Positions 5,986 to 55,134 of a stretch of 64,000 bases of DNA are shown one piece after another. A model generated the notes under the pieces. The model ran no database searches. It was not told the origin of the DNA and saw nothing but the letters and a program-made list of their open reading frames with translations. The DNA lies in contig CAZBFO010000001.1 of assembly GCA_964491475.1 (NCBI GenBank), positions 189,265-253,264 on the forward strand. The letters are read 5' to 3'. Both the position numbers and the translations under genes were made by a program. Position 1 is the first letter of the stretch, and the number at the start of each line of letters is the position of its first letter. The stretch comes from an uncultured Gammaproteobacteria bacterium. Lineage in GTDB: Bacteria > Patescibacteriota > Patescibacteriia > SG8-24.

Positions 5986-7104
5986 ATGAATTACTACGTC
6001 AACCTATTCTCACCGGAAACCGCGGAAATTTTTTCGCGTTCCGGTAAGAACATAAGCGGCTTCCGTCTGACAAAAAAAACTTACGTTGAGAACAGAAAAA
6101 TCGGTCCGGGGGACCGATTCATTTGTTATGTAACACGCATTCAACGCTTTATTGGCGTTTTAGAAGTTGTCAGCGACCCGTTCGTTGATAGCTCTCCAAT
6201 TTTTGACAAAGAAAATGACCCATTTGTCCTCCGCTTTAAGGTAAAGCCGATGGTATGGCTTCCGCTCGAAAAAGCACTGCCAATTCATGACAAAGCCATT
6301 TGGAACAACCTGTCTTTTACCAAAGGACTTGGGGATGATAGCAATAATTGGACTTACATGGTTTTTTCAAGTCCAAATCATTGGCCGACTGGAGATTGTG
6401 TTTTTCTTGAAAAGAAACTGCTTGGCCAAGCAGAGGACCAAGTTGATTTTCCGTTTAGCGAAGATGACCAGAAGAAACTTAAACCCCAAAAAATTAAGCT
6501 TCCTGGGAAGAAAGCTGTAGCCGTAACGATTCCGGAAGATGAGGAGGTCCCAGATACAGCAGAACAAACTACACCAAAAGACAGTGAACGCGAGTCACTT
6601 ATTGTCCAATCTAAGTTAGCCGAGGTTGGCGAAAAGCTCGGCTTTAAAATTTGGCTACCACGAAACGACAGGGCAGCCATCATCGGAATGTGGAAACCGC
6701 GGCCAGATTCTCTACTTGAAGAGCTGCCGTTTTCTTTTGACGACGCAACCACTCGAACCATAAAAAATATCGATGTACTATGGGTTAAAGGTCGTACAAT
6801 TGCTAGGGCTTTTGAGGTGGAGGGCACCACATCAATATATTCTGGTATTTTGAGGATGGCCGACCTCCTATCACTCGTACCGAACATTGAAATCAAGATC
6901 CACATCGTTGCGCCAGACGGGAGGCGCGAGGAAGTGTTTAAACAAATATCTCGCCCAGTTTTTGCGATAATGGAAAAAGCACCTCTGGCAGAGCTCTGTA
7001 CCTTTATCTCCTATAGTTCGGTATACGAACTGGCCTCTGAGAAAAGATTAGATTTAATGAAAGAATCCGTAGTCGATGAATACGAGGAAGCCTCCGAAGA
7101 GTAG
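5986..7104 (+). CDS. Hypothetical protein with an N-terminal PUA/EVE-like domain and a C-terminal putative nuclease-like domain; candidate modification-dependent (Type IV) restriction enzyme
   Basis: GC drops abruptly at the lysS stop. The N-terminus (MNYYVNLFSPETAEIF...GPGDRFICYVT...FIGVLEVVSDPF) resembles EVE/PUA-like folds. The C-terminus (IDVLWVKG...AFEVEGTT) shows a possible D...ExE/K nuclease-like strand pair. A Type II R-M lies adjacent. Confidence 0.4.
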   Translation: MNYYVNLFSPETAEIFSRSGKNISGFRLTKKTYVENRKIGPGDRFICYVTRIQRFIGVLEVVSDPFVDSSPIFDKENDPFVLRFKVKPMVWLPLEKALPIHDKAIWNNLSFTKGLGDDSNNWTYMVFSSPNHWPTGDCVFLEKKLLGQAEDQVDFPFSEDDQKKLKPQKIKLPGKKAVAVTIPEDEEVPDTAEQTTPKDSERESLIVQSKLAEVGEKLGFKIWLPRNDRAAIIGMWKPRPDSLLEELPFSFDDATTRTIKNIDVLWVKGRTIARAFEVEGTTSIYSGILRMADLLSLVPNIEIKIHIVAPDGRREEVFKQISRPVFAIMEKAPLAELCTFISYSSVYELASEKRLDLMKESVVDEYEEASEE

Positions 7105-7573
7105 TTATATAACTCTTGTGCGCGACAAACAAAAAGATCACACGGTACTCGTCTTCGGCACATTCGACCTGCTTCACCCAGGCCATCTTGCGTTTCTACG
7201 TGCGGCAGCAAAGTACGGCTCAGTGACGGCCATCATAACGCCCGATGCGAAAGTCAAAATAGAGAAAGGGAAAGCACCACACTTTTCTGAACAAGAGAGG
7301 ATGCTTATGGCCGCGGCCATTAAGTATGTCGACCATGTCGTTCTGGGAGACAATGGTACAAAATGGAATGTAGTACGCAATCTGGCGCCTGACGTTATTT
7401 GCGTTGGCCATGACCAGAACGCCAATCACCCAAAGTTCCTCGCGCAGTTGGCGCTGCTAAAAAAGCTTCCGAAAATTGTTCGGCTGCCCAGCCTTAAATC
7501 TTCGCGCTACTCATCCTCAAAAGTTAAGCTTGAAATACACAAAGCCAAACAAAACGAAGCAGCCGCTGATTAG
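7076..7573 (+). CDS. Cytidylyltransferase-like nucleotidyltransferase (RibL FAD synthase / TagD glycerol-3-phosphate cytidylyltransferase family)
   Basis: VLVFGTFDLLHPGHLAFL is the (H/T)xGH nucleotidyltransferase motif. ...VVLGDNG... and PDVICVGHDQ align with archaeal RibL. The gene is low GC and overlaps the upstream ORF by 29 nt, so the true start may be an internal or alternative codon. Confidence 0.55.
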   Translation: MNTRKPPKSSYITLVRDKQKDHTVLVFGTFDLLHPGHLAFLRAAAKYGSVTAIITPDAKVKIEKGKAPHFSEQERMLMAAAIKYVDHVVLGDNGTKWNVVRNLAPDVICVGHDQNANHPKFLAQLALLKKLPKIVRLPSLKSSRYSSSKVKLEIHKAKQNEAAAD

Positions 7574-7659
7574 TGCTCAGCTCCGAATCCATCGCAATGT
7601 GCTGAAACAGCCCATAACTTAATCAAAAACCGTCGCTTTTATGATGGTTTTGTTGCCGT

Positions 7660-7694
7660 TTGACATTGACGCGACAGCTAATTTTTGCTAATAC
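7660..7694 (+). promoter_or_regulatory. Putative sigma70-type promoter for the PLD endonuclease gene (TTGACA/TTGACG - 17 nt - TAATAC)
   Basis: Sequence tttgacattgacgcgacagctaatttttgctaatact lies about 70 nt upstream of the Met at 7766. Confidence 0.4.
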
Positions 7695-7765
7695 TTTGTA
7701 AGGCGCGCCCGTTGCATGCCCGCCGTGACGGACATCGTAAATCACAACGACAACACCTTCTCACA

Positions 7766-8959
7766 ATGCCTACACAAAAATTCATTTTCCAGGGCATTAC
7801 TTCGGAAACACACAAATCTGGTGTTGCATGGCTTTTGGCAACTGCAGATATCCAAAAAATCTTAATGAGCGTGGCCTTCATCAGCGAAGAAGGTGTGGCA
7901 CAGATTGAAAATGATTTGCGAAGCCACGCGACAAGTACCGAGTTTTTTGCAGGGATCCGTAATGAGATAACTTCTCGTCAAGCACTCGCCCGTCTCATTG
8001 GTTTAGGCGCGACTTTGTTTACGGTTGATACCGGTTCAAAGGGCACGCTTTTCCATCCAAAGTTATACTTTGCCAAAGGGCAAAATTTTGCGCGTCTCAT
8101 AGTGGGTAGCGCAAACCTGACTGCTGGTGGCCTCAACGATAATATTGAAGCCAGTATCGCCCTCGAGCTCGATCTTGCTCAAGCCAATGATTCTGCGCTC
8201 AGCGACGATGTCGAGCGGCTGTTGGGTGACATGGTATCCAATCATCCCAGTAACGTAAAAAGAATTTCTGCCGCCACCGAGCTTGATGTGCTACTGAACA
8301 ATGGCTTATTAATTGACGAAAGCCTCGCCGCGCCCCCTCGCGCGGCGACTAAAGGATCTAGCCCGTCGAGCGATATTGTTCCCCGGATTCAGCTGAGCAC
8401 CACCCGGCTGAACCGCATCGTCGCACGCGCACGCACCACTCCTCGACAGGTTCCCCAAGCCGCCAGGGCGGGCCGCTCAACCCAAGCCTCGCCACAAGCA
8501 TCTCCAGCTCCTTTGCTGACCGGGATTGAATTGGTATGGCAAAGCAAACCCCTGGAGGAAAGTGACCTAAACATCCCGAGCGGCAACAACACCCACCCCA
8601 AGGGCTCCATGAGCCTCGATCAGGGTACCCTAGACCCCTCGGTTGATTTCCGTCATTACTTCCGAAATACCGTTTTTCCGCAATTAACTTGGACGGTGAG
8701 TACACGCACCCCTGACGGAGAAGAGGCCAGCGCAAAGTGTGAGCTAATTGTAAAAGGGATTTCCTACGGAGTACATGAATTGACTATCAGTCACCACACA
8801 TCAACGACATCGACCACCTACAGGCAGCGAGGCCCGACGACCCGTCTTCGATGGGGCGCCATGAAAAGTCTTGTAGCCACTCCCGTTTTGCTTGGCCGAA
8901 CACTTTCACTTTACAAGAATACCGCAAGTTCAGACCGCTTTGTTATTGATATTGACTGA
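7766..8959 (+). CDS. PLD-family (HKD nuclease) restriction endonuclease, BfiI/NgoAVII-like
   Basis: HPKLYFAKGQNFARLIVGSANLTAGG carries the HxK...GSxN PLD motif. It is followed by a C-terminal domain of DNA-binding size. Its 3' end overlaps a convergent N6A MTase. The start is taken at the internal Met (MPTQKF) because the longer ORF begins inside the promoter. Confidence 0.6.
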   Translation: MPTQKFIFQGITSETHKSGVAWLLATADIQKILMSVAFISEEGVAQIENDLRSHATSTEFFAGIRNEITSRQALARLIGLGATLFTVDTGSKGTLFHPKLYFAKGQNFARLIVGSANLTAGGLNDNIEASIALELDLAQANDSALSDDVERLLGDMVSNHPSNVKRISAATELDVLLNNGLLIDESLAAPPRAATKGSSPSSDIVPRIQLSTTRLNRIVARARTTPRQVPQAARAGRSTQASPQASPAPLLTGIELVWQSKPLEESDLNIPSGNNTHPKGSMSLDQGTLDPSVDFRHYFRNTVFPQLTWTVSTRTPDGEEASAKCELIVKGISYGVHELTISHHTSTTSTTYRQRGPTTRLRWGAMKSLVATPVLLGRTLSLYKNTASSDRFVIDID

Positions 8960-10596
8960 GCGTTATTTTGCTCGGACGCGGTTCTTTGCCGTCGATTTCG
9001 GAGATTTATCCAATTTTCAAAAATCAACTCTCTTTCGGTTGCCGTCAAGCCCAAATCACCCAAGAGCTTGCGATCCTGCTTGCCCAGCACCGCCTCAGTG
9101 GACAAAGTTCGGACGTCATAATCGAGCTCCTTGATGTTAATCTTCACTCCCTTGGGCATGGGAATCAGCAGTCGCTCGATCTCGGACGGAACAAGTTCCA
9201 ATACACCTCCGCCGTAATGCCTACCCTCCAGCTCCGCACTTAACGAGGTGAGCGAATTTACGAAATTACCGACCAAGACATTCCCCGAAACGCTGTTTGG
9301 CTTAATTCTATATGCAGTGTCAGTGGTAAAAGCGTTTAGCTTGTTCACAATAAGCCTCGGAGTATTGCTCGAACGCTTAAGCATGCCAATCTCGGTTGCA
9401 TGCACAGAAGGAACGGAATACCAAGGCTTTCGAACGCTACACTTATAGCGAGTGTTCAGCTTTTGCCGTTCGCCAAACGCAATGTATTTTCTGGCGGCGG
9501 CATCCTTTGCTGCTGACTTATCAGGGAACCAGATGAAGTTTGTCGGGTAGCCCTTTTGAGCGTTCTCTGCGTGCTGCCGAGCGTCGTAAATAACCCCGGG
9601 GCAGTGCCCACTCCTCCCGAACATCGGGTGTGACCATTTCTCCAACCCATACTCTTGGACGGTATCATCATCCACCAGAAAAAAATCGTTCGCGCCGGTC
9701 ACGATGCCAACGTCGACTGCTGCAATATCAATGAATTGTTTTACGTATTCTTGGTTTGCCAGATCTGACAGAATCGACCGCATCTTTGACGCAAGGAGTG
9801 CGTAGGTCCACTTTCCCTTATTGACATCCGTGTTCATCAACTTTGGCGCGTTAAACACCTCAGAGGGATTCAACTTTAGAAACTCTTTTCCTTGCACAGG
9901 ATAAATGCCGACGCCTTCATTAAAGCCCTTGGGGCCGCGGCGTTTTTCAGCCATCAAGAGGACCGCACCCTGGAGCGTATTACCAAACCAGATTTCCTGA
10001 GGGTCAACGATTACGACTCTCCGACACTCTCGTCCAAGAAATGCTCGCAGCGAGCCAGCGTGGGCTACGTGGATTATTTCCGAAGGCACCACCATCGCCA
10101 AACGACCTCCAGGCCGAAGCATCGCAAGGGATGCTGCAATAAATGGCACCCACGCGTTCGTATGCTTAGTGAAGTCGAGGTTTAGGTGCGAAAAAATTTG
10201 CGCGGCACGTGCTTGGAATTTCTCTGGTAGATACTGATAGCGGATGAATGGCGGATTACCCAAAATGGCATCGAAGGTGGTGTTACCGCGCATTTCTTCG
10301 GTTGCCCAGCCGAGATAGTCACCCTGAACGATTCTTGCCTTCGGAAGAAGACCGCGTACTCGCCTCGCAGACTTCGCGGCCTCGTCTTCGTCCAGCTCAA
10401 GGCCGGTGACGGTGCTATTTGCAAATCCACCAACCTTCGCGAGTGCTTCAAAAAAAATTCCGTCCCCGCAACTAGGCTCGAGGATGTTTGCCGGCTTAAT
10501 TTCCTTCACCCAGCGGCTCAAAAAAACTGCCAAATCTAAGGAAGTGTAGTAGCCGCCCCTAAGCTTTTGTGCACTCTCATTAGCCCTAAAGTTCAT
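8911..10596 (-). CDS. N6-adenine-specific DNA methyltransferase (gamma class, Eco57I/TaqI-like) with a C-terminal target-recognition region
   Basis: ILEPSCGDGIFF is the SAM-binding FxGxG motif and AILGNPPFIRY is catalytic motif IV (NPPF). The gene is low GC and sits opposite the PLD nuclease. Confidence 0.8.
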   Translation of the reverse strand: MNFRANESAQKLRGGYYTSLDLAVFLSRWVKEIKPANILEPSCGDGIFFEALAKVGGFANSTVTGLELDEDEAAKSARRVRGLLPKARIVQGDYLGWATEEMRGNTTFDAILGNPPFIRYQYLPEKFQARAAQIFSHLNLDFTKHTNAWVPFIAASLAMLRPGGRLAMVVPSEIIHVAHAGSLRAFLGRECRRVVIVDPQEIWFGNTLQGAVLLMAEKRRGPKGFNEGVGIYPVQGKEFLKLNPSEVFNAPKLMNTDVNKGKWTYALLASKMRSILSDLANQEYVKQFIDIAAVDVGIVTGANDFFLVDDDTVQEYGLEKWSHPMFGRSGHCPGVIYDARQHAENAQKGYPTNFIWFPDKSAAKDAAARKYIAFGERQKLNTRYKCSVRKPWYSVPSVHATEIGMLKRSSNTPRLIVNKLNAFTTDTAYRIKPNSVSGNVLVGNFVNSLTSLSAELEGRHYGGGVLELVPSEIERLLIPMPKGVKINIKELDYDVRTLSTEAVLGKQDRKLLGDLGLTATERELIFENWINLRNRRQRTASEQNNAQSISITKRSELAVFL

Positions 10597-14971: not shown

Positions 14972-15152
14972 AGGTGTGATGTGGATAAGTATGGGGTAGT
15001 CGTAACAGACCTCCTAAATACTGTCAAGCCTTTGACAACTTATTATTTACAAAGTGACAGATGGTCATACATAATTAATGCTTAAAGTCCGAAAAAGCTT
15101 GCGTTAATGTCAGCTCTCGACTACCCTCGCGCCCGCCGGTAATCGGACAAGC

Positions 15153-15569
15153 ATGGGTGATTTTCTAAAACGTTTCTTGGAATGGTCACAGCTTAAAATG
15201 GCACTGCATCAATTGCACAAAACGGTGCGATGCAAGGAGCGCGAAATATGGTGGGTGCACCTAGGGGTAAACGTAGGCGACGAAGAGGACGGCAAGAATG
15301 CGTCGTTCGAAAGACCAGCTATCATCATTAGGAGATTTTATGGCGGCAAGATACTTTGGGTTATTCCTCTCACAACATCAAAGAGAGATGGCGATTATTA
15401 CTTCAGCACCCGCTACACTAACTCAAACGGAAAAGTAATTGATCAATTCGCCATGATCCCGCACTTACGTGCAATCAGCCAAAAAAGGCTGGTACGCAAA
15501 TTGCGGATGCTGTCGAAAATCGAGTTCTCATCGTTAGCAGAACGAATAAAACAGTTCTTGGACACATAA
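15153..15569 (+). CDS. MazF/PemK-like endoribonuclease toxin homolog (orphan; no adjacent antitoxin ORF)
   Basis: REIWWVHLGVNVG...ERPAIIIRRF...ILWVIPLTTSKRDGDYYF parallels MazF GDLIWVDFDP...RPAVVLSPF...CLCVPCTTQSKGYPFEV. Confidence 0.5.
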   Translation: MGDFLKRFLEWSQLKMALHQLHKTVRCKEREIWWVHLGVNVGDEEDGKNASFERPAIIIRRFYGGKILWVIPLTTSKRDGDYYFSTRYTNSNGKVIDQFAMIPHLRAISQKRLVRKLRMLSKIEFSSLAERIKQFLDT

Positions 15570-15743
15570 AAAACGACACCCCGTCTGCCGAAGCAGGACG
15601 GGGCGTCTCGGAGCCCGAAGGCACTTGTACGGCTAGGCTACCACTGCCCGCACGGGCGGTCAAGAAACCCATCACATCGGAATTTTTTCGCCTCATTCAG
15701 CATTATTGTCAATACAAACACCTCGTGGCACAATGACCCCCGT

Positions 15744-17072
15744 ATGTTGGACCCCAAACTCATCCGAGAAAACCCCGAGGTGGTCAAAGCCGCCGCCAAG
15801 AACAAGCGCGTGAACGTCGACGTGGACGCCATCGTCTCGTTGGATTCGCAGAAGCGCAAGCTCCAACAGGAGTCCGAAGCCATCAAGGCCGAACAGAACA
15901 AGGCATCGGCTGAAATCGCCAAACTCTCCGCCGAAGAACGTCCCAGCAAGCTCGAGGCAGTCAAAAAGCTCAAAGAATCTTTCAAGGAGCTGGAAGAAAA
16001 GATGACCGCCATCGACGCCGAGCTGCAGCCGCTCCTCTTGAAGCTGCCCAACATCCCCAGCGACGACACGCCAATCGGCCCGGACGAGACCGGCAACGTC
16101 GTGCTGCGCCAAGTGGGGGAGATGCCCAAGTTCGATTTCCCGATCCGCGACCATGTGGAACTCGGCAAGATCAACGATCTCATCGACAACGACCTCGGTG
16201 CCGCCGTGGCCGGCGCACGCTTCACCTACCTGAAGGGCGACTTGGTGCTGCTGCAGATGGCCATGGTCAACTACGCCTTCGCGCTGCTCACCGACCGCGG
16301 TGCCCTTGAACGCATCATCGCCGAAGCCGACCTGCACGACGTCGTGGCCACCCCCTTCGTCCCCGTGGTGCCGCCGCTGATGATCAAGCCCGACGTGTAC
16401 CAGCGCATGGCCCGCCTTGAGCCGCGCGAGGAGCGCTACCACATCCCCAGCGACGACCTCTACCTCATCGGCAGCGCCGAGCATACCCTCGGCCCCATCC
16501 ACATCGACGAGACCATCGACGAGACCCGCCTGCCGCTCCGCTACGTCGCTGCCACCGCCGCCTTCCGCCGCGAGGCCGGCTCGTACGGCAAGGACACCCG
16601 CGGCATCATCCGCCTGCACCAGTTCGACAAGGTCGAGATGGAATCGTTCTCCGCCCCCGAACAGTCGCGCGGCGAGCACGAGTTCTTCGTGGCCGTCCAA
16701 GAGCACATCTGCAAGGCTTTCGGGATTCCATACCAGGTGGTGCAATCCTGCACCGGCGACCTCGGCGATCCGAACGCCCGCAAGATCGACATCGAATGCT
16801 GGATGCCCGGCCAGGGAACCTACCGCGAAACCCACTCCGCCGACTACATGACCGACTACCAGACCCGCCGCCTCGCCACGCGCGTGAAGCGCCGCGAGGG
16901 CGGGAACGAGTTGGCGCACACCAACGACGCGACCTGCATCGCCATCGGGCGCATGCTGGTGGCGGTGATGGAGAATCATCAGCGCGAGAACGGGACGATT
17001 GGCGTGCCGGAAGTGCTGGTGCCTTATATGTTGGGGCGGACGGTGGTTGGGGGAACAGAAAAAAAATCCTAA
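15744..17072 (+). CDS. serS: Seryl-tRNA synthetase
   Basis: N-terminal coiled-coil arm followed by class II core motifs (FRREAGSYGKDTRGIIRLHQFDKVE). Confidence 0.9.
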   Translation: MLDPKLIRENPEVVKAAAKNKRVNVDVDAIVSLDSQKRKLQQESEAIKAEQNKASAEIAKLSAEERPSKLEAVKKLKESFKELEEKMTAIDAELQPLLLKLPNIPSDDTPIGPDETGNVVLRQVGEMPKFDFPIRDHVELGKINDLIDNDLGAAVAGARFTYLKGDLVLLQMAMVNYAFALLTDRGALERIIAEADLHDVVATPFVPVVPPLMIKPDVYQRMARLEPREERYHIPSDDLYLIGSAEHTLGPIHIDETIDETRLPLRYVAATAAFRREAGSYGKDTRGIIRLHQFDKVEMESFSAPEQSRGEHEFFVAVQEHICKAFGIPYQVVQSCTGDLGDPNARKIDIECWMPGQGTYRETHSADYMTDYQTRRLATRVKRREGGNELAHTNDATCIAIGRMLVAVMENHQRENGTIGVPEVLVPYMLGRTVVGGTEKKS

Positions 17073-22778: not shown

Positions 22779-24590
22779 ATGAAGCGACAAGGACCTATTA
22801 CGGCGCTTTTGGTTTTGCTCGGCCTGGTGTTCCTGACGTTCATGATCGCCAGCCCCCAGGGGCAGGACATCCGCAACGTCCCCGTCAGCGAGTTCATCGC
22901 CGACGTGGAGCGCGGCGACATCAAGGACGTGACCATCGACGGCGACCACGTCGTCGGCATGAGTCCGGGAATCGGCGCGGGCAAGGAGGTGGAGTACGTC
23001 ACGTACGCCACCGACAAGACCGAGCTGATCCGCGTCATGCACGAAAAGCACGTCACCTACCGCGAAAAGCAGCCGTCCGGCCTGGCCGCGGCGCTCTGGC
23101 TGGTGCTGCCGCTGCTGTTCCTGGTGGTTGTCGGATCGCTGGTCCTCAAACGGATGGCCAACGTCAACGCCTCGACCATCAAGCGGACCATTTCCAACAA
23201 GGCCACGCTTCACCATTCGGTGAAGGTGACCTTCCAGGACGTGGCCGGCATCGACGAGGCCGTCGAGGAAGTGCGCGACCTGGTCACGTACCTCAAGGAC
23301 CCCAAAGGCGCCCGACGCCTCGGCGGTCGCGGACCCAAAGGCGTGCTGCTGATCGGGCCGCCCGGCAACGGCAAGACCCTGCTTGCCAGGGCCATCGCCG
23401 GGGAAGCCGGCGTGCCGTTCTTCTCGGCCGACGCTTCCAGCTTCGTGGAGATGTTCGTCGGCGTCGGCGCGGGCCGCGTCCGCGACCTGTTCGAAGACGC
23501 GCGCAAGCACGCCCCCTGCATCATCTTCATCGATGAGCTGGATGCGGTAGGCAAGAAGCGCGGCGGGCTGGCCAGCGGCGGAGGCAACGACGAGCGCGAA
23601 CAGACGCTCAACCAGCTGCTCATCGCCATGAACGGCTTCTCGTCGAACGACGGCATCATCGTCCTCGCGGCGACCAACCGTCCCGAGACGCTCGACAGCG
23701 CGCTGATCCGTCCCGGACGGTTCGACGCCAAGGTGGTCGTGCCCCGGCCCGACCTCCGCGGCCGCGAGAAGATCCTCAAGGTGCATTCGCGCGACAAGAT
23801 CATCTCGCCGGACGTCGACTACACCATCATCGCCCGGCGTACCACCGGCATGAGCGGCGCGGACCTCGAAGGCGTCATGAACGAGGCGGCATTGCGGGCG
23901 AACAAGCTCGGCAAGGCGGCCATCGACATGGCCGACGTCGAGTACGCCTGCAAGAAGCTGCAGCTCGGCGCGGAACGGAAGAGCGCGGTGATTCCCGAAG
24001 AGGTCAAGAAGGTCATCGCGGTGCACGAGTGCGGCCATACCATGGCCGGATGGTTCACCGTGGCGGCAGACCAGGTCCGGGAGGTGACTATCGTTCCTCG
24101 CGGACCGGCCCTCGGCCTTACCTGGACCATGCCGGAAGAGGACCGCATGCTGCTGTCCAAGACGCAGCTGCTCGCCGAGATCCAGCTCCTGTATGGGGGA
24201 CGGGTCGCAGAGCAGGTGGTCTTCGGATCGGATTTCATCACCACCGGCGCCAGCAACGACCTGGAACGGCTGACCTCGATCGCCAAAGGCATGGTCAAGC
24301 GCTACGGCATGTGCCCCGAGCTCGGCCCGCCGCAAGTCTACGGCGACAACGACAGCGGCTTCGTCTTCCAGGAGAGCCGCAAGGACTACAGCGAGAAGAC
24401 CGAAGCCGCCATCGACGACCAGGTCAACAAGCTGCTCAAGGGCTGCTATGAAACGGTGCTGCAACTCCTGACGGAGAAGCGGGACCTGCTCGACAAGCTC
24501 ACCGCGGCGCTGCTCGACAAGGAATCGCTGGGCCAGAGGGACATCGAGGCCATTCTCGGCGTCCGCGGCAAGACGCCCATCACGGCCTGA
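22779..24590 (+). CDS. ftsH: ATP-dependent zinc metalloprotease FtsH
   Basis: Two N-terminal TM helices. The AAA module carries [23 protein letters not shown]. The M41 peptidase domain carries HECGHTMAG (HExxH). Confidence 0.9.
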
Positions 24591-24591
24591 C

Positions 24592-24625
24592 CGCCAGCCC
24601 GCCTTAAAACGGCGGGTTTTTTATT
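24592..24625 (+). terminator. Rho-independent terminator after ftsH
   Basis: ccgccagcccgccttaaaacggcgggttttttattt is a GC stem followed by a T-tract. Confidence 0.6.
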
Positions 24626-25509
24626 TGGCGACACATCATCGATAAGTGAAAACATTTTGCGACACAGGAGGCGCTGCGGTAGAAAGGAAGAAAAAGAAAA
24701 GCCGTCGCAACAAGGACGGCTGACGGAAAAGCTTATCGGCTGCAGATGAGCGACCGCGCATGCGGTCGTTCCAGGAAACCTTTGAGATCGGACTCGCACG
24801 GTCGCGCCGAATGCCAACCGACCAGCAGCAGCGCAGCTGCAGGAACCGCAATGGCGGCAGCGACGCCGAAGCCGGCCACGCGGCTGAAGGTCCATTGCCG
24901 CCGGCTCAAGGGGCGCAACGAATGACCAGGCCGACGGGGCCGCAGGACGGCCGCAGTCCAGCTGCCAAGCCGCCACATGACTACGATGACCAAAGGAACC
25001 CCTATAAGGGTCAGTGTCAGCATTACGCAAGTGCTCACTTGGCGTACCTCCCGGCAAGCGATGGGTGAGTCGTTCACCCAAAGGCATGAACATAATGCTG
25101 TAGCATACCAAAAAGAGCAAGGAGCCACCTTATAGGCCATTTAAATGCCAAGGCCTATATTTTGCCTTATTTTAGCCAAATAATTGATACTTGGATTGAT
25201 ACGGGCAAAAGAACCTCGAATCCGCAACCTAAAAACCATTAATCGGATCGACGCCGCGTTCAACCGACAAAACCCAAGAAATAGAGGCGCGTGGAGATCA
25301 TTGCGAAAGTACCAAAAACAGACCGATGTCTGACGGGGAAGCCCGGTAAAACCCGCCGTACCCCTCCTTTTAGCCTTAAATAGTGTCGTCTAAGATATAT
25401 TGGGCGACACAATGTATGCCTAAAAATTGGCCCTTCCCCATCGCCCCTTGTTGCATTGCCGCCAAGACCGATACGATAGAGAAGTCCTTCGCCCGAAAGG
25501 AGATGGGCA

Positions 25510-26184
25510 ATGGCAGAAAACGGTCCGTTTGGACGACTGAAGGAGGCGATAGAACGTCTCCTTGATCGGCTAAGAGGGAAGCAGGAAACCGAGGCAACCG
25601 GCGACTCCCCTCTTACATGGCCAAAAGATGAAAAACACCGGGTGGCCGTGCACGAAGCTGGGCACGGAGTGGTCGCCTGGACGTCGGCGACGGTAACGGA
25701 GGTCTCCTCTATCGTCGTGTCCCCGGGCGGAAACGGACGGACAGTCTGGGCCGGCAGTTCGCTGCTCGGCAGCGGACATCCGCTCGCCCTTTGGGAACGT
25801 TGCGCCGTGTGCTTCGGTGGCATCGCCGGCGAGGCGTTCACCTACGGCAACTACTACCGCAACGGGTCGATGTTCGACATGCAGCAAGCCCTCGCCGTGG
25901 CGAACCAGCTTGCCGCAGCGGCATTGCTCTATCCCTCGGTGCTCGCTTCGCCCTGGGGTCAGCCGGAACCCGCCCTGCTGAACGACTTCGGCAACATCTA
26001 CGTCATCCGGCTCCCCTCCCCGCAGGCAGATATCCTTTACGCGGCGTACTATCATGCCTGCATGATGGTCGTCGTGAACAAGAGCAAGCTGTTGGCCCTC
26101 GCCGCCGCTGCCGCCAAGCACCGAACGCTCAACGCCAAGGACATTTCACGCGTCCTCGGCCCGCGACCGTGGGCCCTCCCTTGA
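25510..26184 (+). CDS. FtsH-like M41 peptidase-domain protein lacking the AAA module (truncated paralog)
   Basis: DEKHRVAVHEAGHGVVAW matches FtsH EKRIVAYHEAGHAIVGW (HExxH). CFGGIAGEAFTYG matches LYGGRLAEEIIYG. No ATPase motifs are present. Confidence 0.5.
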   Translation: MAENGPFGRLKEAIERLLDRLRGKQETEATGDSPLTWPKDEKHRVAVHEAGHGVVAWTSATVTEVSSIVVSPGGNGRTVWAGSSLLGSGHPLALWERCAVCFGGIAGEAFTYGNYYRNGSMFDMQQALAVANQLAAAALLYPSVLASPWGQPEPALLNDFGNIYVIRLPSPQADILYAAYYHACMMVVVNKSKLLALAAAAAKHRTLNAKDISRVLGPRPWALP

Positions 26185-26250
26185 ATCCCGTGCCTTGCCA
26201 CACGGGATTTTTTCATACGAAAAAGCGGCCATGCTGGCCGCGGAAGACGA

Positions 26251-26610
26251 TTAGCCGGAACGAGATACCCACCACAGGCGGAATATCGCGTACGCCGCGC
26301 AGATGAGGGTGGCCGGCAGGACGATCGGCAGCACCTGCTGCCTGAATCGCGTCCAGGTCATCACCGTCTGTGACTCGCGGCATCGGCCGCAGTGAATGCG
26401 CTCGGCGTATCCTGCCGGGTGCGATACGGAGTACCGCTCGCACTTGGCGCACCAGCGCACGTAAATCGGCAGGTTGCCCGACCAGCCCGGTTGGCGGTCC
26501 TGGCGCAAATACATCGGCCTGCCCAACGCGCGGGCAAGGCTGAAGCGCGTCGGGTGGCGCCGCTGTTCGGCGGCAATGTCGTACGTGTCTTGAAACGGTT
26601 TTCTTAGCAT
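26251..26610 (-). CDS. Small hypothetical protein with a Cys-cluster (CxxC...CxxC) and a C-terminal TM helix
   Basis: The sequence contains WCAKCERY...HCGRCRES followed by a hydrophobic tail. An AAGGAG Shine-Dalgarno lies 9 nt upstream of the ATG (MLRKPF). Confidence 0.3.
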   Translation of the reverse strand: MLRKPFQDTYDIAAEQRRHPTRFSLARALGRPMYLRQDRQPGWSGNLPIYVRWCAKCERYSVSHPAGYAERIHCGRCRESQTVMTWTRFRQQVLPIVLPATLICAAYAIFRLWWVSRSG

Positions 26611-26706
26611 CCCCACTTGCTCCTTTGCGTGACAGGGCTGTGCGGCGAGGAAAGGACGACGCGAAGATGCTATCCCCTTTCAGCCCATAAAACAAGACGT
26701 CCCGGC

Positions 26707-53852: not shown

Positions 53853-54006
53853 GTGGATTCCCGGGTTGCGACGGCGTAGTTAGTATGGACGGAAACTTCC
53901 GAAAGGAAGTTTCCCACAATGCCGGCTATAATAAAGAGTGGCGCCTTCTAAGGCGTAAGTAGTAACGAGCAATGCTCATTTCCTACCCGCGCAAGTACGT
54001 TGCGCT

Positions 54007-54255
54007 TCAGAAGCGGTAGACGATTCTACCCTTAGTCAAATCGTACGGAGTCATCTCCAGTTTGACCTCGTCGCCGGGAAGGAGACGAATGCGGTTCATT
54101 CGCATCTTTCCGGAGAGATGTCCCAGAATGGTCTGGCCACCCTCGAGACGGATCTTGAACGTTGCTGCAGGAAGACATTCTTCGACGACACCGTTCATTT
54201 CGATGAACCCTTTGGACACCGATTGCGCGTTGTCGTTAGAGGTGTTTCCTGCCAT
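54007..54255 (-). CDS. infA: Translation initiation factor IF-1
   Basis: [65 protein letters not shown]. The start is taken at the internal Met. Confidence 0.85.
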
Positions 54256-54494
54256 AACGCCTTGAAGTGTACCGTGGACGATAAAAAATCGCAAGCCTAG
54301 GGCCTACGACTCTGCGGGACTTTTCCACAAAGCGTTGCCATTGTAGCAGTCCCTGTTTATCTGTCAAGGATTTTGGGGTGATAATTAAATCAGCCTTATT
54401 TTGACCTTTTCAACTCCTGCCTTTTGTACATTTTTAAGGCTAAAAAGTGCAAAAAATATGTCGTTTTTTTGGCTAAAATTAGCCATTTTTACTC

Positions 54495-54523
54495 TTGACA
54501 AAAAGGGCGTTTTGTGCTATACT
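54495..54523 (+). promoter_or_regulatory. Consensus sigma70 promoter (TTGACA - 17 nt - TATACT) upstream of the small repeat protein gene
   Basis: cTTGACAaaaagggcgttttgtgcTATACTcg. A GGAGG Shine-Dalgarno lies 6 nt upstream of the ATG at 54577. Confidence 0.55.
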
Positions 54524-54576
54524 CGTCTTAGGTCAGTAACGAAGCATACAACCAAGTCACACATTCGGAGGAATAC

Positions 54577-54918
54577 ATGCTCATTGCCATCGCCATCGCG
54601 TTCTGCCTCTGCCTGGTCGTCACGCTTGCGTTCGTTCCCGTGATGATGAACTCCGGCCAAATCAGCCGAGAGGAAGAGGTCAAGGAGGTCATCTACAACA
54701 AGACCCTGACCTTCAAGAACAAGATCATCATCGACGCCGAGTTCGAAGACTGCCTGGACAACCTCCCGGTCGTCCAACAGCCCTCGTCCGGCATCGTGCG
54801 CATCATGTCATCGTACGACCTGGACAACTTCCCGGTCGTTTACAAGCCTTCGTCCGGCACGGTACGCGTGTCGGCCTACAGCCCGCCCAGCGCTCGCAAG
54901 GTCAACCTCTTCGTCTGA
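54577..54918 (+). CDS. Small membrane-anchored protein with an internal ~19-aa tandem repeat
   Basis: N-terminal TM segment (LIAIAIAFCLCLVVTLAFVPVMM). The repeat units are DNLPVVQQPSSGIVRIMSSYDL and DNFPVVYKPSSGTVRVSAYSP. Confidence 0.45.
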   Translation: MLIAIAIAFCLCLVVTLAFVPVMMNSGQISREEEVKEVIYNKTLTFKNKIIIDAEFEDCLDNLPVVQQPSSGIVRIMSSYDLDNFPVVYKPSSGTVRVSAYSPPSARKVNLFV

Positions 54919-54948
54919 AACGGACAACTCTCGCCAGGGAGCAAAAAA

Positions 54949-55134
54949 ATGAAGAACGAAAACGTTCACACCGCAGAGACCGTTCGTCCGCCCGCCGGCT
55001 ACCCCAACGACATGCCGACCATGCGGCCGGAAGCGCCCTTCGTCGAGTTCGGCGAAGTACAGCTCGAGAAGCCCGAGCCCACCCTGGCCGAGCAGTCGGC
55101 CGCCCAGCTCAAGCGCCTCGAACAGCGCAAGTAA
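54949..55134 (+). CDS. Small hypothetical protein (61 aa)
   Basis: Short ORF followed by the hairpin aaacggcctcccacttggtgaggccgtttt. Confidence 0.3.
   Translation: MKNENVHTAETVRPPAGYPNDMPTMRPEAPFVEFGEVQLEKPEPTLAEQSAAQLKRLEQRK

Follow-up and report, generated by a model that had tools for sequence, protein, structure and literature searches.

Organization of the ftsH locus

The DNA analyzed here, a stretch of 64,000 nucleotides from an uncultured bacterium (contig CAZBFO010000001.1, positions 189,265–253,264; hereafter the window), carries a canonical ftsH gene and, downstream of it on the same strand, a 224-amino acid open reading frame (ORF) predicted to encode a stand-alone M41 (FtsH-type) zinc peptidase, termed here the M41-only protein. 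The ftsH gene (22779–24590, + strand, 603 amino acids), already recognized in the initial annotation of the window, encodes FtsH_ext, AAA, AAA_lid_3, and M41 domains with an intact HECGH motif, and its product scored at equivalog level against TIGR01241 (677.6 bits versus a cut-off of 600). The M41-only gene (25510–26184, + strand) starts 919 bp further on, in agreement with the distance of ~0.9 kb first estimated, and its product consists of an N-terminal amphipathic helix, a disordered linker, and a protease domain at residues ~38–220. In the spacer between the two genes lie a probable small gene on the minus strand, an AT-rich conserved block, and a 28-bp near-palindrome. GltX homologues with source names placed the window in the Patescibacteria, among the Parcubacteria and near the Uhrbacteria. 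Contigs and loci of relatives are numbered L001–L112, and the M41-only proteins of the window clade are designated P0001–P0003. The gene order in these relatives is serS-alr-ddl-ftsQ-[ftsH]-[small gene]-palindrome-[M41-only]-[Zn-ribbon/TM]-M23-gltX-wecG-clpB-lexA, where brackets mark the variable genes and TM stands for transmembrane.

The M41-only gene has expression signals of its own. A Shine-Dalgarno sequence (AAAGGAG, 25496–25502, + strand) lies 7 nt before the ATG and is kept in L001 and L093, and a terminator read from the sequence, ATCCCGTG-N8-CACGGGAT followed by TTTTT (26185–26213, + strand), directly follows the ORF; a weak Rfam match to anti-hemB at 26146–26216 (E 0.39) corresponds to the hairpin of this terminator. 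Three lineages carry the ORF undisrupted and in full length, at 53–55% identity and with a mean column identity of 74%.

The initial annotation had considered that the ORF could be a decaying partial duplicate of ftsH, that is, a pseudogene that had lost the TM and AAA parts. Such an origin would fit the location of the ORF, which immediately follows ftsH in the same orientation, as well as its fast evolution and a GC content at third codon positions (GC3) below that of its housekeeping neighbors (0.74 versus 0.88–0.89). This reading did not survive closer inspection and is now exceedingly improbable. The ORF product is only 21% identical to the neighboring FtsH. A tblastn comparison of FtsH with positions 24500–26300 gave a best E value of 0.8 outside the known genes and thus no ATPase-coding remnant upstream, the discovery of which, like a loss of the zinc ligands, would according to the initial annotation have refuted its reading; together these two results rule out a recent ftsH duplicate. 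The dedicated Shine-Dalgarno sequence and terminator, the intact ORF in three lineages, the invariance of the catalytic residues among 60 family members, and the existence of hundreds of stand-alone relatives, some of them in phages with no ftsH nearby, argue against decay as well. As judged from sequence, the ORF is a real gene and not a decaying copy of the adjacent ftsH.

Fold and active site of the M41-only protein

By BLASTP, residues 38–219 of the M41-only protein aligned with residues 406–596 of the adjacent FtsH, which represent the entire protease domain, at the 21% identity given above. The M41 similarity reported initially was confirmed with Pfam, in which the protein passed the gathering threshold for PF01434 (Peptidase_M41, E 3.2e-10, 40.6 bits versus a cut-off of 29.9); the precomputed annotation of P0001–P0003 is also PF01434. 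Against the TIGR01241 equivalog model, the protein scored 32.1 bits versus the required 600 and matched profile positions 415–512 only. Its lack of TM segments and of an AAA module, both described initially, was upheld by the absence of any 19-residue stretch that reaches a hydropathy of 1.6 and of any AAA family match in Pfam or NCBIfam. Similarly, no match to PF06480 (FtsH_ext) was obtained, and the N-terminal TM pair typical of FtsH is absent. In the window clade (P0001–P0003), the N terminus forms an amphipathic helix at residues 6–21 with a hydrophobic moment of 1.97 and a mean hydropathy of −0.59, and there is no TM anchor.

The HEAGH motif pointed out in the initial annotation occupies residues 48–52. 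In an alignment of 60 family sequences, H48, E49, G51, H52, G104, and D123 were invariant, and E108, W57, W95, and W149 were kept in at least 90% of the members. Both by BLASTP and by comparison of the family profile with PDB entries, D123 aligned with the SND/AND Asp of FtsH, the residue that is the third zinc ligand in FtsH structures. The third zinc ligand and the catalytic residues, for which the initial annotation had proposed an alignment check, are therefore present (H48, E49, H52, D123, and E108).

The family profile matched residues 263–458 of Thermotoga maritima FtsH (PDB 3kds) with an E value of 3.7e-24. An AlphaFold2 (AF2) model of the M41-only protein, with a predicted local distance difference test (pLDDT) score of 87.9, consists of an N-terminal helix (residues 6–21), a disordered linker (residues 25–35), and a compact domain. 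When this model was searched with Foldseek, all of the best PDB matches were protease domains of FtsH, AFG3L2, YME1, or FtsHi, aligned over 190–230 columns. Taken with the model, these matches show a complete M41 protease-domain fold that includes the C-terminal helical half, for which the BLASTP, profile-to-PDB, and fold matches provide the evidence. Three observations weigh against a complete and generally active domain. The Foldseek TM-scores are moderate (0.5–0.6); the Pfam hidden Markov model covers profile positions 5–101 of 191, corresponding to the first half of the domain only; and the copy at one related locus (L107, 858–1124) reads HEGGR in place of HExxH and so is probably inactive, as some other family copies may be.

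A family of M41 proteins without the AAA module

A word-indexed search returned the M41-only protein itself and two relatives at 53–55% identity. An exhaustive profile search gave 1018 matches at E ≤1e-3, of which 158 remained at E ≤1e-10; counted in clusters at 50% identity, the family has no fewer than 158. For 152 family proteins, comprising the top search matches and three close relatives, sequence features were then checked. All but two were no longer than 280 amino acids (150/152), and the same number contained HExxH (150/152); 139 of the 152 started with Met, 140 carried the extended signature HExxHxxxxW, and in 71 of the 152 a hydrophobic, TM-like segment directly preceded HExxH. The window protein has all of the features by which membership was recognized (HExGHxxxxW near the N terminus, G104, D123, W95, and W149, within a length range of ~150–280 amino acids). 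Since full-length FtsH proteins enter the profile list only from an E value of ~1e-12, the short proteins are a family of their own rather than fragments at contig edges.

Members of this kind are present in databases under various names. One relative is labeled "cell division protease FtsH", and BFVD holds a 214-amino acid "Peptidase M41 domain-containing protein" (A0A6J5RJ76) from an uncultured Caudovirales phage. In Rhizobiales (Brucella and Mesorhizobium), proteins of 230–270 amino acids named "ATP-dependent Zn protease" combine AAA_lid_3 with M41. These catalogued short proteins resemble the M41-only protein in lacking the AAA module, in length, and in keeping HEAGH. Those from Rhizobiales retain a remnant of the AAA lid (PF17862) and are nearer to FtsH, whereas the window protein and its relatives have a TM or amphipathic helix right before HEAGH. 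In the literature library that was searched, no paper on AAA-less M41 proteins was found. By all sequence indications, the M41-only protein belongs to a large, catalogued but uncharacterized AAA-less M41 family of Patescibacteria and phages.

The HExGHxxxxW signature is common to the family and to Parcubacterial FtsH (that of the window, that of L108, and a fragment in L104) and was seen in 1 of 61 other FtsH proteins. In the three Parcubacterial genes (window, 22779–24590; L108, 10432–12237; L104, 55–642), the Trp stands five residues past HExGH. The common signature hints that the family may have originated from FtsH of the candidate phyla radiation (CPR) type. The family-profile scores lend this hint no confirmation, as they do not set CPR FtsH (79–80 bits) apart from other FtsH proteins (52–88 bits).

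The same signature would fit a role of the protein as a non-proteolytic or regulatory partner of FtsH, with a free M41 domain docking on or intercalating into the FtsH protease ring as an adaptor, inhibitor, or cap, and with the phage versions acting on host FtsH. Also in favor of such a role, the M41 domain is the hexamerization module of FtsH, and ftsH adjoins the gene in four of five informative CPR loci (window, L001, L095, and L104). Nevertheless, the strict conservation of the catalytic residues argues for catalysis as the selected function, neither L110 nor any of the phage loci has ftsH nearby, and L108 has ftsH at the locus and no M41-only gene. A partner role of this kind is thus quite unlikely. 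Compensation for a dead FtsH protease can also be set aside, as the FtsH of the window has its own intact HECGH.

Occurrence and divergence of the M41-only gene

An M41-only gene occupies the locus in the window, L001, L093, L094/L109, L095, L104, L107, and L110, whereas the locus is without one in L108, L099, L102/L112, L096/L101, L097, and L111. L108 shows that absence can occur in a close relative, as its GltX is 81% identical to that of the window and both the zinc-ribbon gene and ftsH are kept. The copies that are present differ at their N termini. Those of L094 and L095 have a TM anchor, that of L110 is without an N-terminal extension, and that of L104 (793–1308), with 171 amino acids, has a signal peptide-like N terminus and lies upstream of the palindrome. 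A scan of GTDB species representatives with the family patterns found no relative of the M41-only protein, and in a scan of the same representatives for FtsH, relatives did not exceed 54% identity among the matches listed, which gives no guide to taxonomy; the placement given above relies on the GltX names.

Between the window and L001, identities are 91% for M23, 88% for GltX, and 86% for FtsH, compared with 68% for the zinc-ribbon/TM protein, 56% for the M41-only protein, and 32% for the small TM protein. The housekeeping proteins are therefore far more conserved than the accessory ones. Much faster divergence than in the housekeeping neighbors, patchy presence, and relatives in phages together would mark the M41-only gene as accessory rather than core.

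A conserved 28-bp palindrome near the M41-only gene

The initial annotation had listed three copies of the motif GCGACACA in the spacer. Exactly three were found in the window (24628, 24659, and 25404), all on the + strand, so the copies themselves stood; their number is what chance predicts (3.08 expected in 64 kb). What is non-random is that the three copies fall within ~790 bp on one strand and are conserved in relatives; by our own estimate, ~3% of 900-bp regions would hold some 8-mer three times. The third copy (25404–25411) falls in the right arm of a near-palindrome with an 11-6-11 layout, GTGTCGTCTAA GATATA TTGGGCGACAC (25383–25410). The first two belong to half-sites, namely TTTGGCGACACA (24624–24635, + strand), which is like the right arm and occurs in L001 and not in L108, and TTTTGCGACACA (24655–24666, + strand), 31 bp past the first, the L001 orthologue of which is the exact consensus TTGTGCGACACA. 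Both of these GCGACACA copies are kept exactly in L001 amid otherwise diverged DNA, and the upstream copies and the right half of the palindrome agree at 13 of 14 positions (TATTTGGCGACACA versus TATTGGGCGACACA).

The left 20-mer of the palindrome gave 14 exact matches in metagenome contigs with a GC content of 37–66%, always one per contig; the single-copy contigs include ones of 336 and 496 kb, and the 64-kb window likewise holds one copy. A match in a human gut sample (L105) is without the right arm and is probably due to chance. Loci reached independently via gltX (L108, L109, L110, and L112) likewise have the palindrome, including its invariant 20 nt, and the Uhrbacteria-like L111 has a version with three substitutions in the opposite orientation. 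The element was found in the window, L094–L104, and L106–L112 at the same syntenic position, with the 11-6-11 layout in 17 of the 17 loci listed. The consensus is GTGTCGTCTAAGATATATTG+T[GAC][CAG]GAC[ATG][CG], in which the left 20 nt are invariant and all variation falls in the right arm. A literature search found no paper on this sequence motif.

The site lies between a ddl-ftsQ(-ftsH) block and an M23-gltX block, with or without the M41 gene, and its conservation is accordingly independent of that gene. It stands between convergent 3' ends in L096/L101, L097, L099, and L102 and downstream of the M41 gene in L104, and is therefore more than a promoter or operator for the M41-only gene. The motif thus belongs to a lineage-wide palindrome and not to the M41-only gene, and the palindrome is, from its sequence features, most likely a DNA site for a dimeric or two-subunit protein.

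These arrangements also bear on a regulatory explanation, in which the palindrome and the GCGACACA half-sites would be operators through which a transcription factor, CIRCE-like in having few copies per genome, controls the M41-only gene together with the small gene divergent to it, or in which a small RNA would have the palindrome as its 5' hairpin. The M41-only start does follow the palindrome at 100–390 bp, with both oriented alike, in the window, L001, L093, L109, and L110; the AT-rich center (TAAGAT / TATATT) resembles a −10 box; and a terminator follows 40–80 nt downstream in several loci. On the other hand, there is no gene to control between the convergent 3' ends of L096/L101, L097, L099, and L102, and in L104 the site follows the M41 gene. 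Convergent terminators enclose the two half-sites, and one would not expect that region to be transcribed. Across the seven stem pairs no compensatory change was seen, and 8 of 70 cells were unpaired, all by one-sided changes; for lack of covariation an RNA hairpin was rejected, and the palindrome has no Rfam match. Regulation by operators or by a small RNA is accordingly a doubtful, if possible, explanation.

Among DNA sites, the best candidate is a core site for Xer/dif-type recombination, to which we give a little less than even odds. dif is the 28-bp XerC/XerD chromosome dimer-resolution site, in which two 11-bp arms flank a 6-bp center. The palindrome resembles it in its length of 28 bp, its two 11-bp arms, and its AT-rich 6-bp center flanked by ..TAA / TT.., in having one arm and the center invariant and the other arm variable, in being single-copy on contigs up to 496 kb, and in its intergenic position, often between convergent genes. 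It is on the layout, the AT-rich center, the pairing of one invariant with one variable arm, the single copy per contig, and the intergenic position that the candidate rests.

Several points weigh against a dif site. The arms are unlike the canonical consensus; by our own comparison with the Escherichia coli dif site, they agree at 6–7 of 11 positions with the XerC arm and with the XerD arm only at the inner TTA. The palindrome lies in a conserved housekeeping gene neighborhood with no detectable GC-skew switch, and the skew of the window shows no inflection around 25.4 kb. Among relatives, four low-GC loci have a positive skew on the left and a negative one on the right, which gene-strand bias would explain equally well, and high-GC loci have no switch. 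A scan of 10 ORFs of the window turned up neither a recombinase nor dnaA, and a search of IMG/VR for the 20-mer returned no match, leaving the palindrome absent from viral contigs. With up to two mismatches, the right-arm 12-mer occurs four times in the window versus 5.6 expected, which is no excess over chance. A literature search found no paper on dif in Patescibacteria.

The spacer and the neighboring genes

The spacer is heterogeneous in GC content, as stated initially, which falls from 0.685 (24800–24999) to 0.435 (25100–25299). The initial view that it contains no convincing ORF had to be revised. A minus-strand ORF at 24733–25038, with a GTG start and GGGAGG as ribosome-binding site 8 nt upstream, would encode a 101-amino acid protein with two hydrophobic TM helices, and an intrinsic terminator follows at 24700–24721 (− strand). 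The region of the ribosome-binding site is kept in L001, where the positional counterpart has been called as a 105-amino acid gene; the two products are 32% identical, start alike (M-S-x-C-x-M), and have a C-terminal GW..PC..DL.G motif in common. The best tblastx frame pair is the minus-strand frame of this gene. GC3 and codon-position GC did not discriminate on this ORF, and L108 is without the gene. We consider it quite likely to be a real gene. In an identical Logan contig (L002), a public gene call at 856–1530 (window 24446–25120, minus strand) reports a 224-amino acid ORF. Because this call overlaps the 3' end of ftsH and crosses both terminators, it is most likely a mis-call, and the in-frame small TM ORF at 24733–25038 is the better candidate.

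An AT-rich, conserved non-coding block of 75 nt, TTTAAATGCCAAG...TTAGCCAAA (25108–25182), is kept in L001 and in L108, the latter of which has neither the small TM gene nor the M41-only gene. In the form GGCCATTTAAATGCCAAG...TTAGCCAAA, the block was located at ~1555–1625 in L001 and ~10320–10390 in L108, ~240 bp from the palindrome. It has no Rfam match. A search of 24400–26400 against Rfam down to E = 1 returned nothing except the terminator hairpin of the M41-only gene, so a known RNA in the spacer was rejected.

The ftsH gene ends in an intrinsic terminator with an 8-bp stem and a T-run (24596–24618, + strand), which is kept in L001. Convergent to the M41-only gene, a gene at 26251–26616 (− strand), with a terminator at 26241–26225, encodes a 121-amino acid protein that combines a CxxC...CxxC zinc ribbon with a TM helix at its C terminus. 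Homologues of ~110–120 amino acids are found in L001 (2707–3075), L108 (9374–9736), L109 (11284–11613), and also L094; searches of the protein gave no significant family match. Its topology is that of a tail-anchored protein, and its gene adjoins the M23 peptidase gene even in L108, which has no M41-only gene.

Elsewhere in the window, GC content drops to 0.45–0.54 at ~6000–10500, ~15000–16000, and ~54000–55000 within surroundings of 0.61–0.65. The first of these stretches, ~4.5 kb in length, has few confident ORF calls; it may be of foreign origin or hold an unusual set of genes. Searches of the whole 64-kb window found no tRNA gene and, at the gathering threshold, no Rfam family, yet the window does hold a ribosomal-protein/rpoA/infA cluster at ~50–54 kb.

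Relatives in phages

Members of the family were found on phage-like contigs (L003–L007) with long runs of small co-directional ORFs and with NT5C, DUF2442, and helix-turn-helix genes, and on IMG/VR contigs of 60–140 kb, one of which has a phage helicase two genes away. No tblastn match to the M41-only protein was obtained in the INPHARED genomes of cultured phages. A PADLOC search gave no match for the M41-only, small TM, or zinc-ribbon/TM protein, and a known defense system was rejected on that basis.

A role of the M41-only gene in phage-host conflict is possible. One explanation of this kind holds that the gene is of phage origin (a moron, an exclusion factor, or a counter-defense protease) and became fixed beside a recombination hotspot. 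The relatives on phage contigs lie within blocks of small early-type genes, the gene diverges fast and is patchy among close relatives, and in most CPR loci that carry it, it is 100–390 bp from the palindrome. Set against this are the lack of a PADLOC match and a PHROG match that is weak, the absence of mobile-element genes flanking the M41-only gene, and the absence of the palindrome from viral contigs. Moreover, by best BLAST match the members from CPR loci group together and those from phages likewise, so there is no evidence of recent transfer. An origin of this kind is consequently unlikely.

Discussion

The interpretation that accounts best for these results is that the M41-only gene is a functional, independently transcribed M41 zinc peptidase gene of an AAA-less family, and that the palindrome, most likely a DNA site for which the Xer/dif type is the best candidate, simply adjoins it. 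We put the probability of this interpretation at roughly 60%. The "trans-acting peptidase" suggested in the initial annotation is supported as far as sequence goes, in that the fold and all metal-binding and catalytic residues are kept.

In comparison with FtsH, AFG3L2, and YME1, the membrane-bound ATP-dependent zinc proteases of MEROPS M41, the M41-only protein has the same protease fold, with HEXXH, the Asp as third ligand, the GG.AE helix, and an alignment over the whole M41 domain; it differs in having neither the TM pair nor the periplasmic domain, the AAA+ module, or the AAA lid. The PRG strand motif of FtsH reads PGGNG in the M41-only protein, and the family has Trp positions of its own (W57, W95, and W149) and a C-terminal LGPRPW tail. 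FtsHi proteins, the proteolytically inactive FtsH homologues of chloroplasts, likewise have diverged M41 domains, which appear in the same profile and fold searches. They keep AAA and have lost HEXXH, whereas the M41-only protein is the reverse, with AAA lost and the zinc site kept.

In the absence of an AAA+ module, the M41-only protein could not itself unfold or translocate substrates. As it has no unfoldase module, it would be expected to cleave peptides, unfolded segments, or exposed tails independently of ATP. Its probable site of action is the membrane, on the cytoplasmic side, given that about half of the family appears to be TM-tethered and that an amphipathic helix takes the position of the TM helix in the window clade. 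In L094, Arg residues follow the TM helix, which by the positive-inside rule would place the catalytic domain in the cytoplasm.

A bolder proposal, likened to the docking of ClpP on ClpX, is that M41-only subunits form a ring that serves as a detachable protease chamber for a separate AAA+ unfoldase, be it the FtsH ATPase ring or another, with phages redirecting the unfoldase of the host; the palindrome would then be the dif site of Parcubacteria, and the M41-only, zinc-ribbon/TM, and small TM genes would be cargo exchanged by Xer. We regard this combination as a long shot.

In FtsH, the textbook example, protease and unfoldase are fused. The protease half occurs here by itself and with its catalytic residues intact, in a family of Patescibacteria and phages that is both large and diverse, and this raises the questions of what an M41 chamber can achieve without ATP-driven delivery of substrates and whether it borrows another unfoldase. 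For annotation, such ORFs should be neither named "cell division protease FtsH" nor treated as fragments. The palindrome is the more unexpected by-product of the analysis. To our knowledge, there is almost nothing known on the chromosome biology of Patescibacteria; if the palindrome is of the dif type, it would readily mark the replication terminus of these bacteria as well as mobile elements that depend on Xer.

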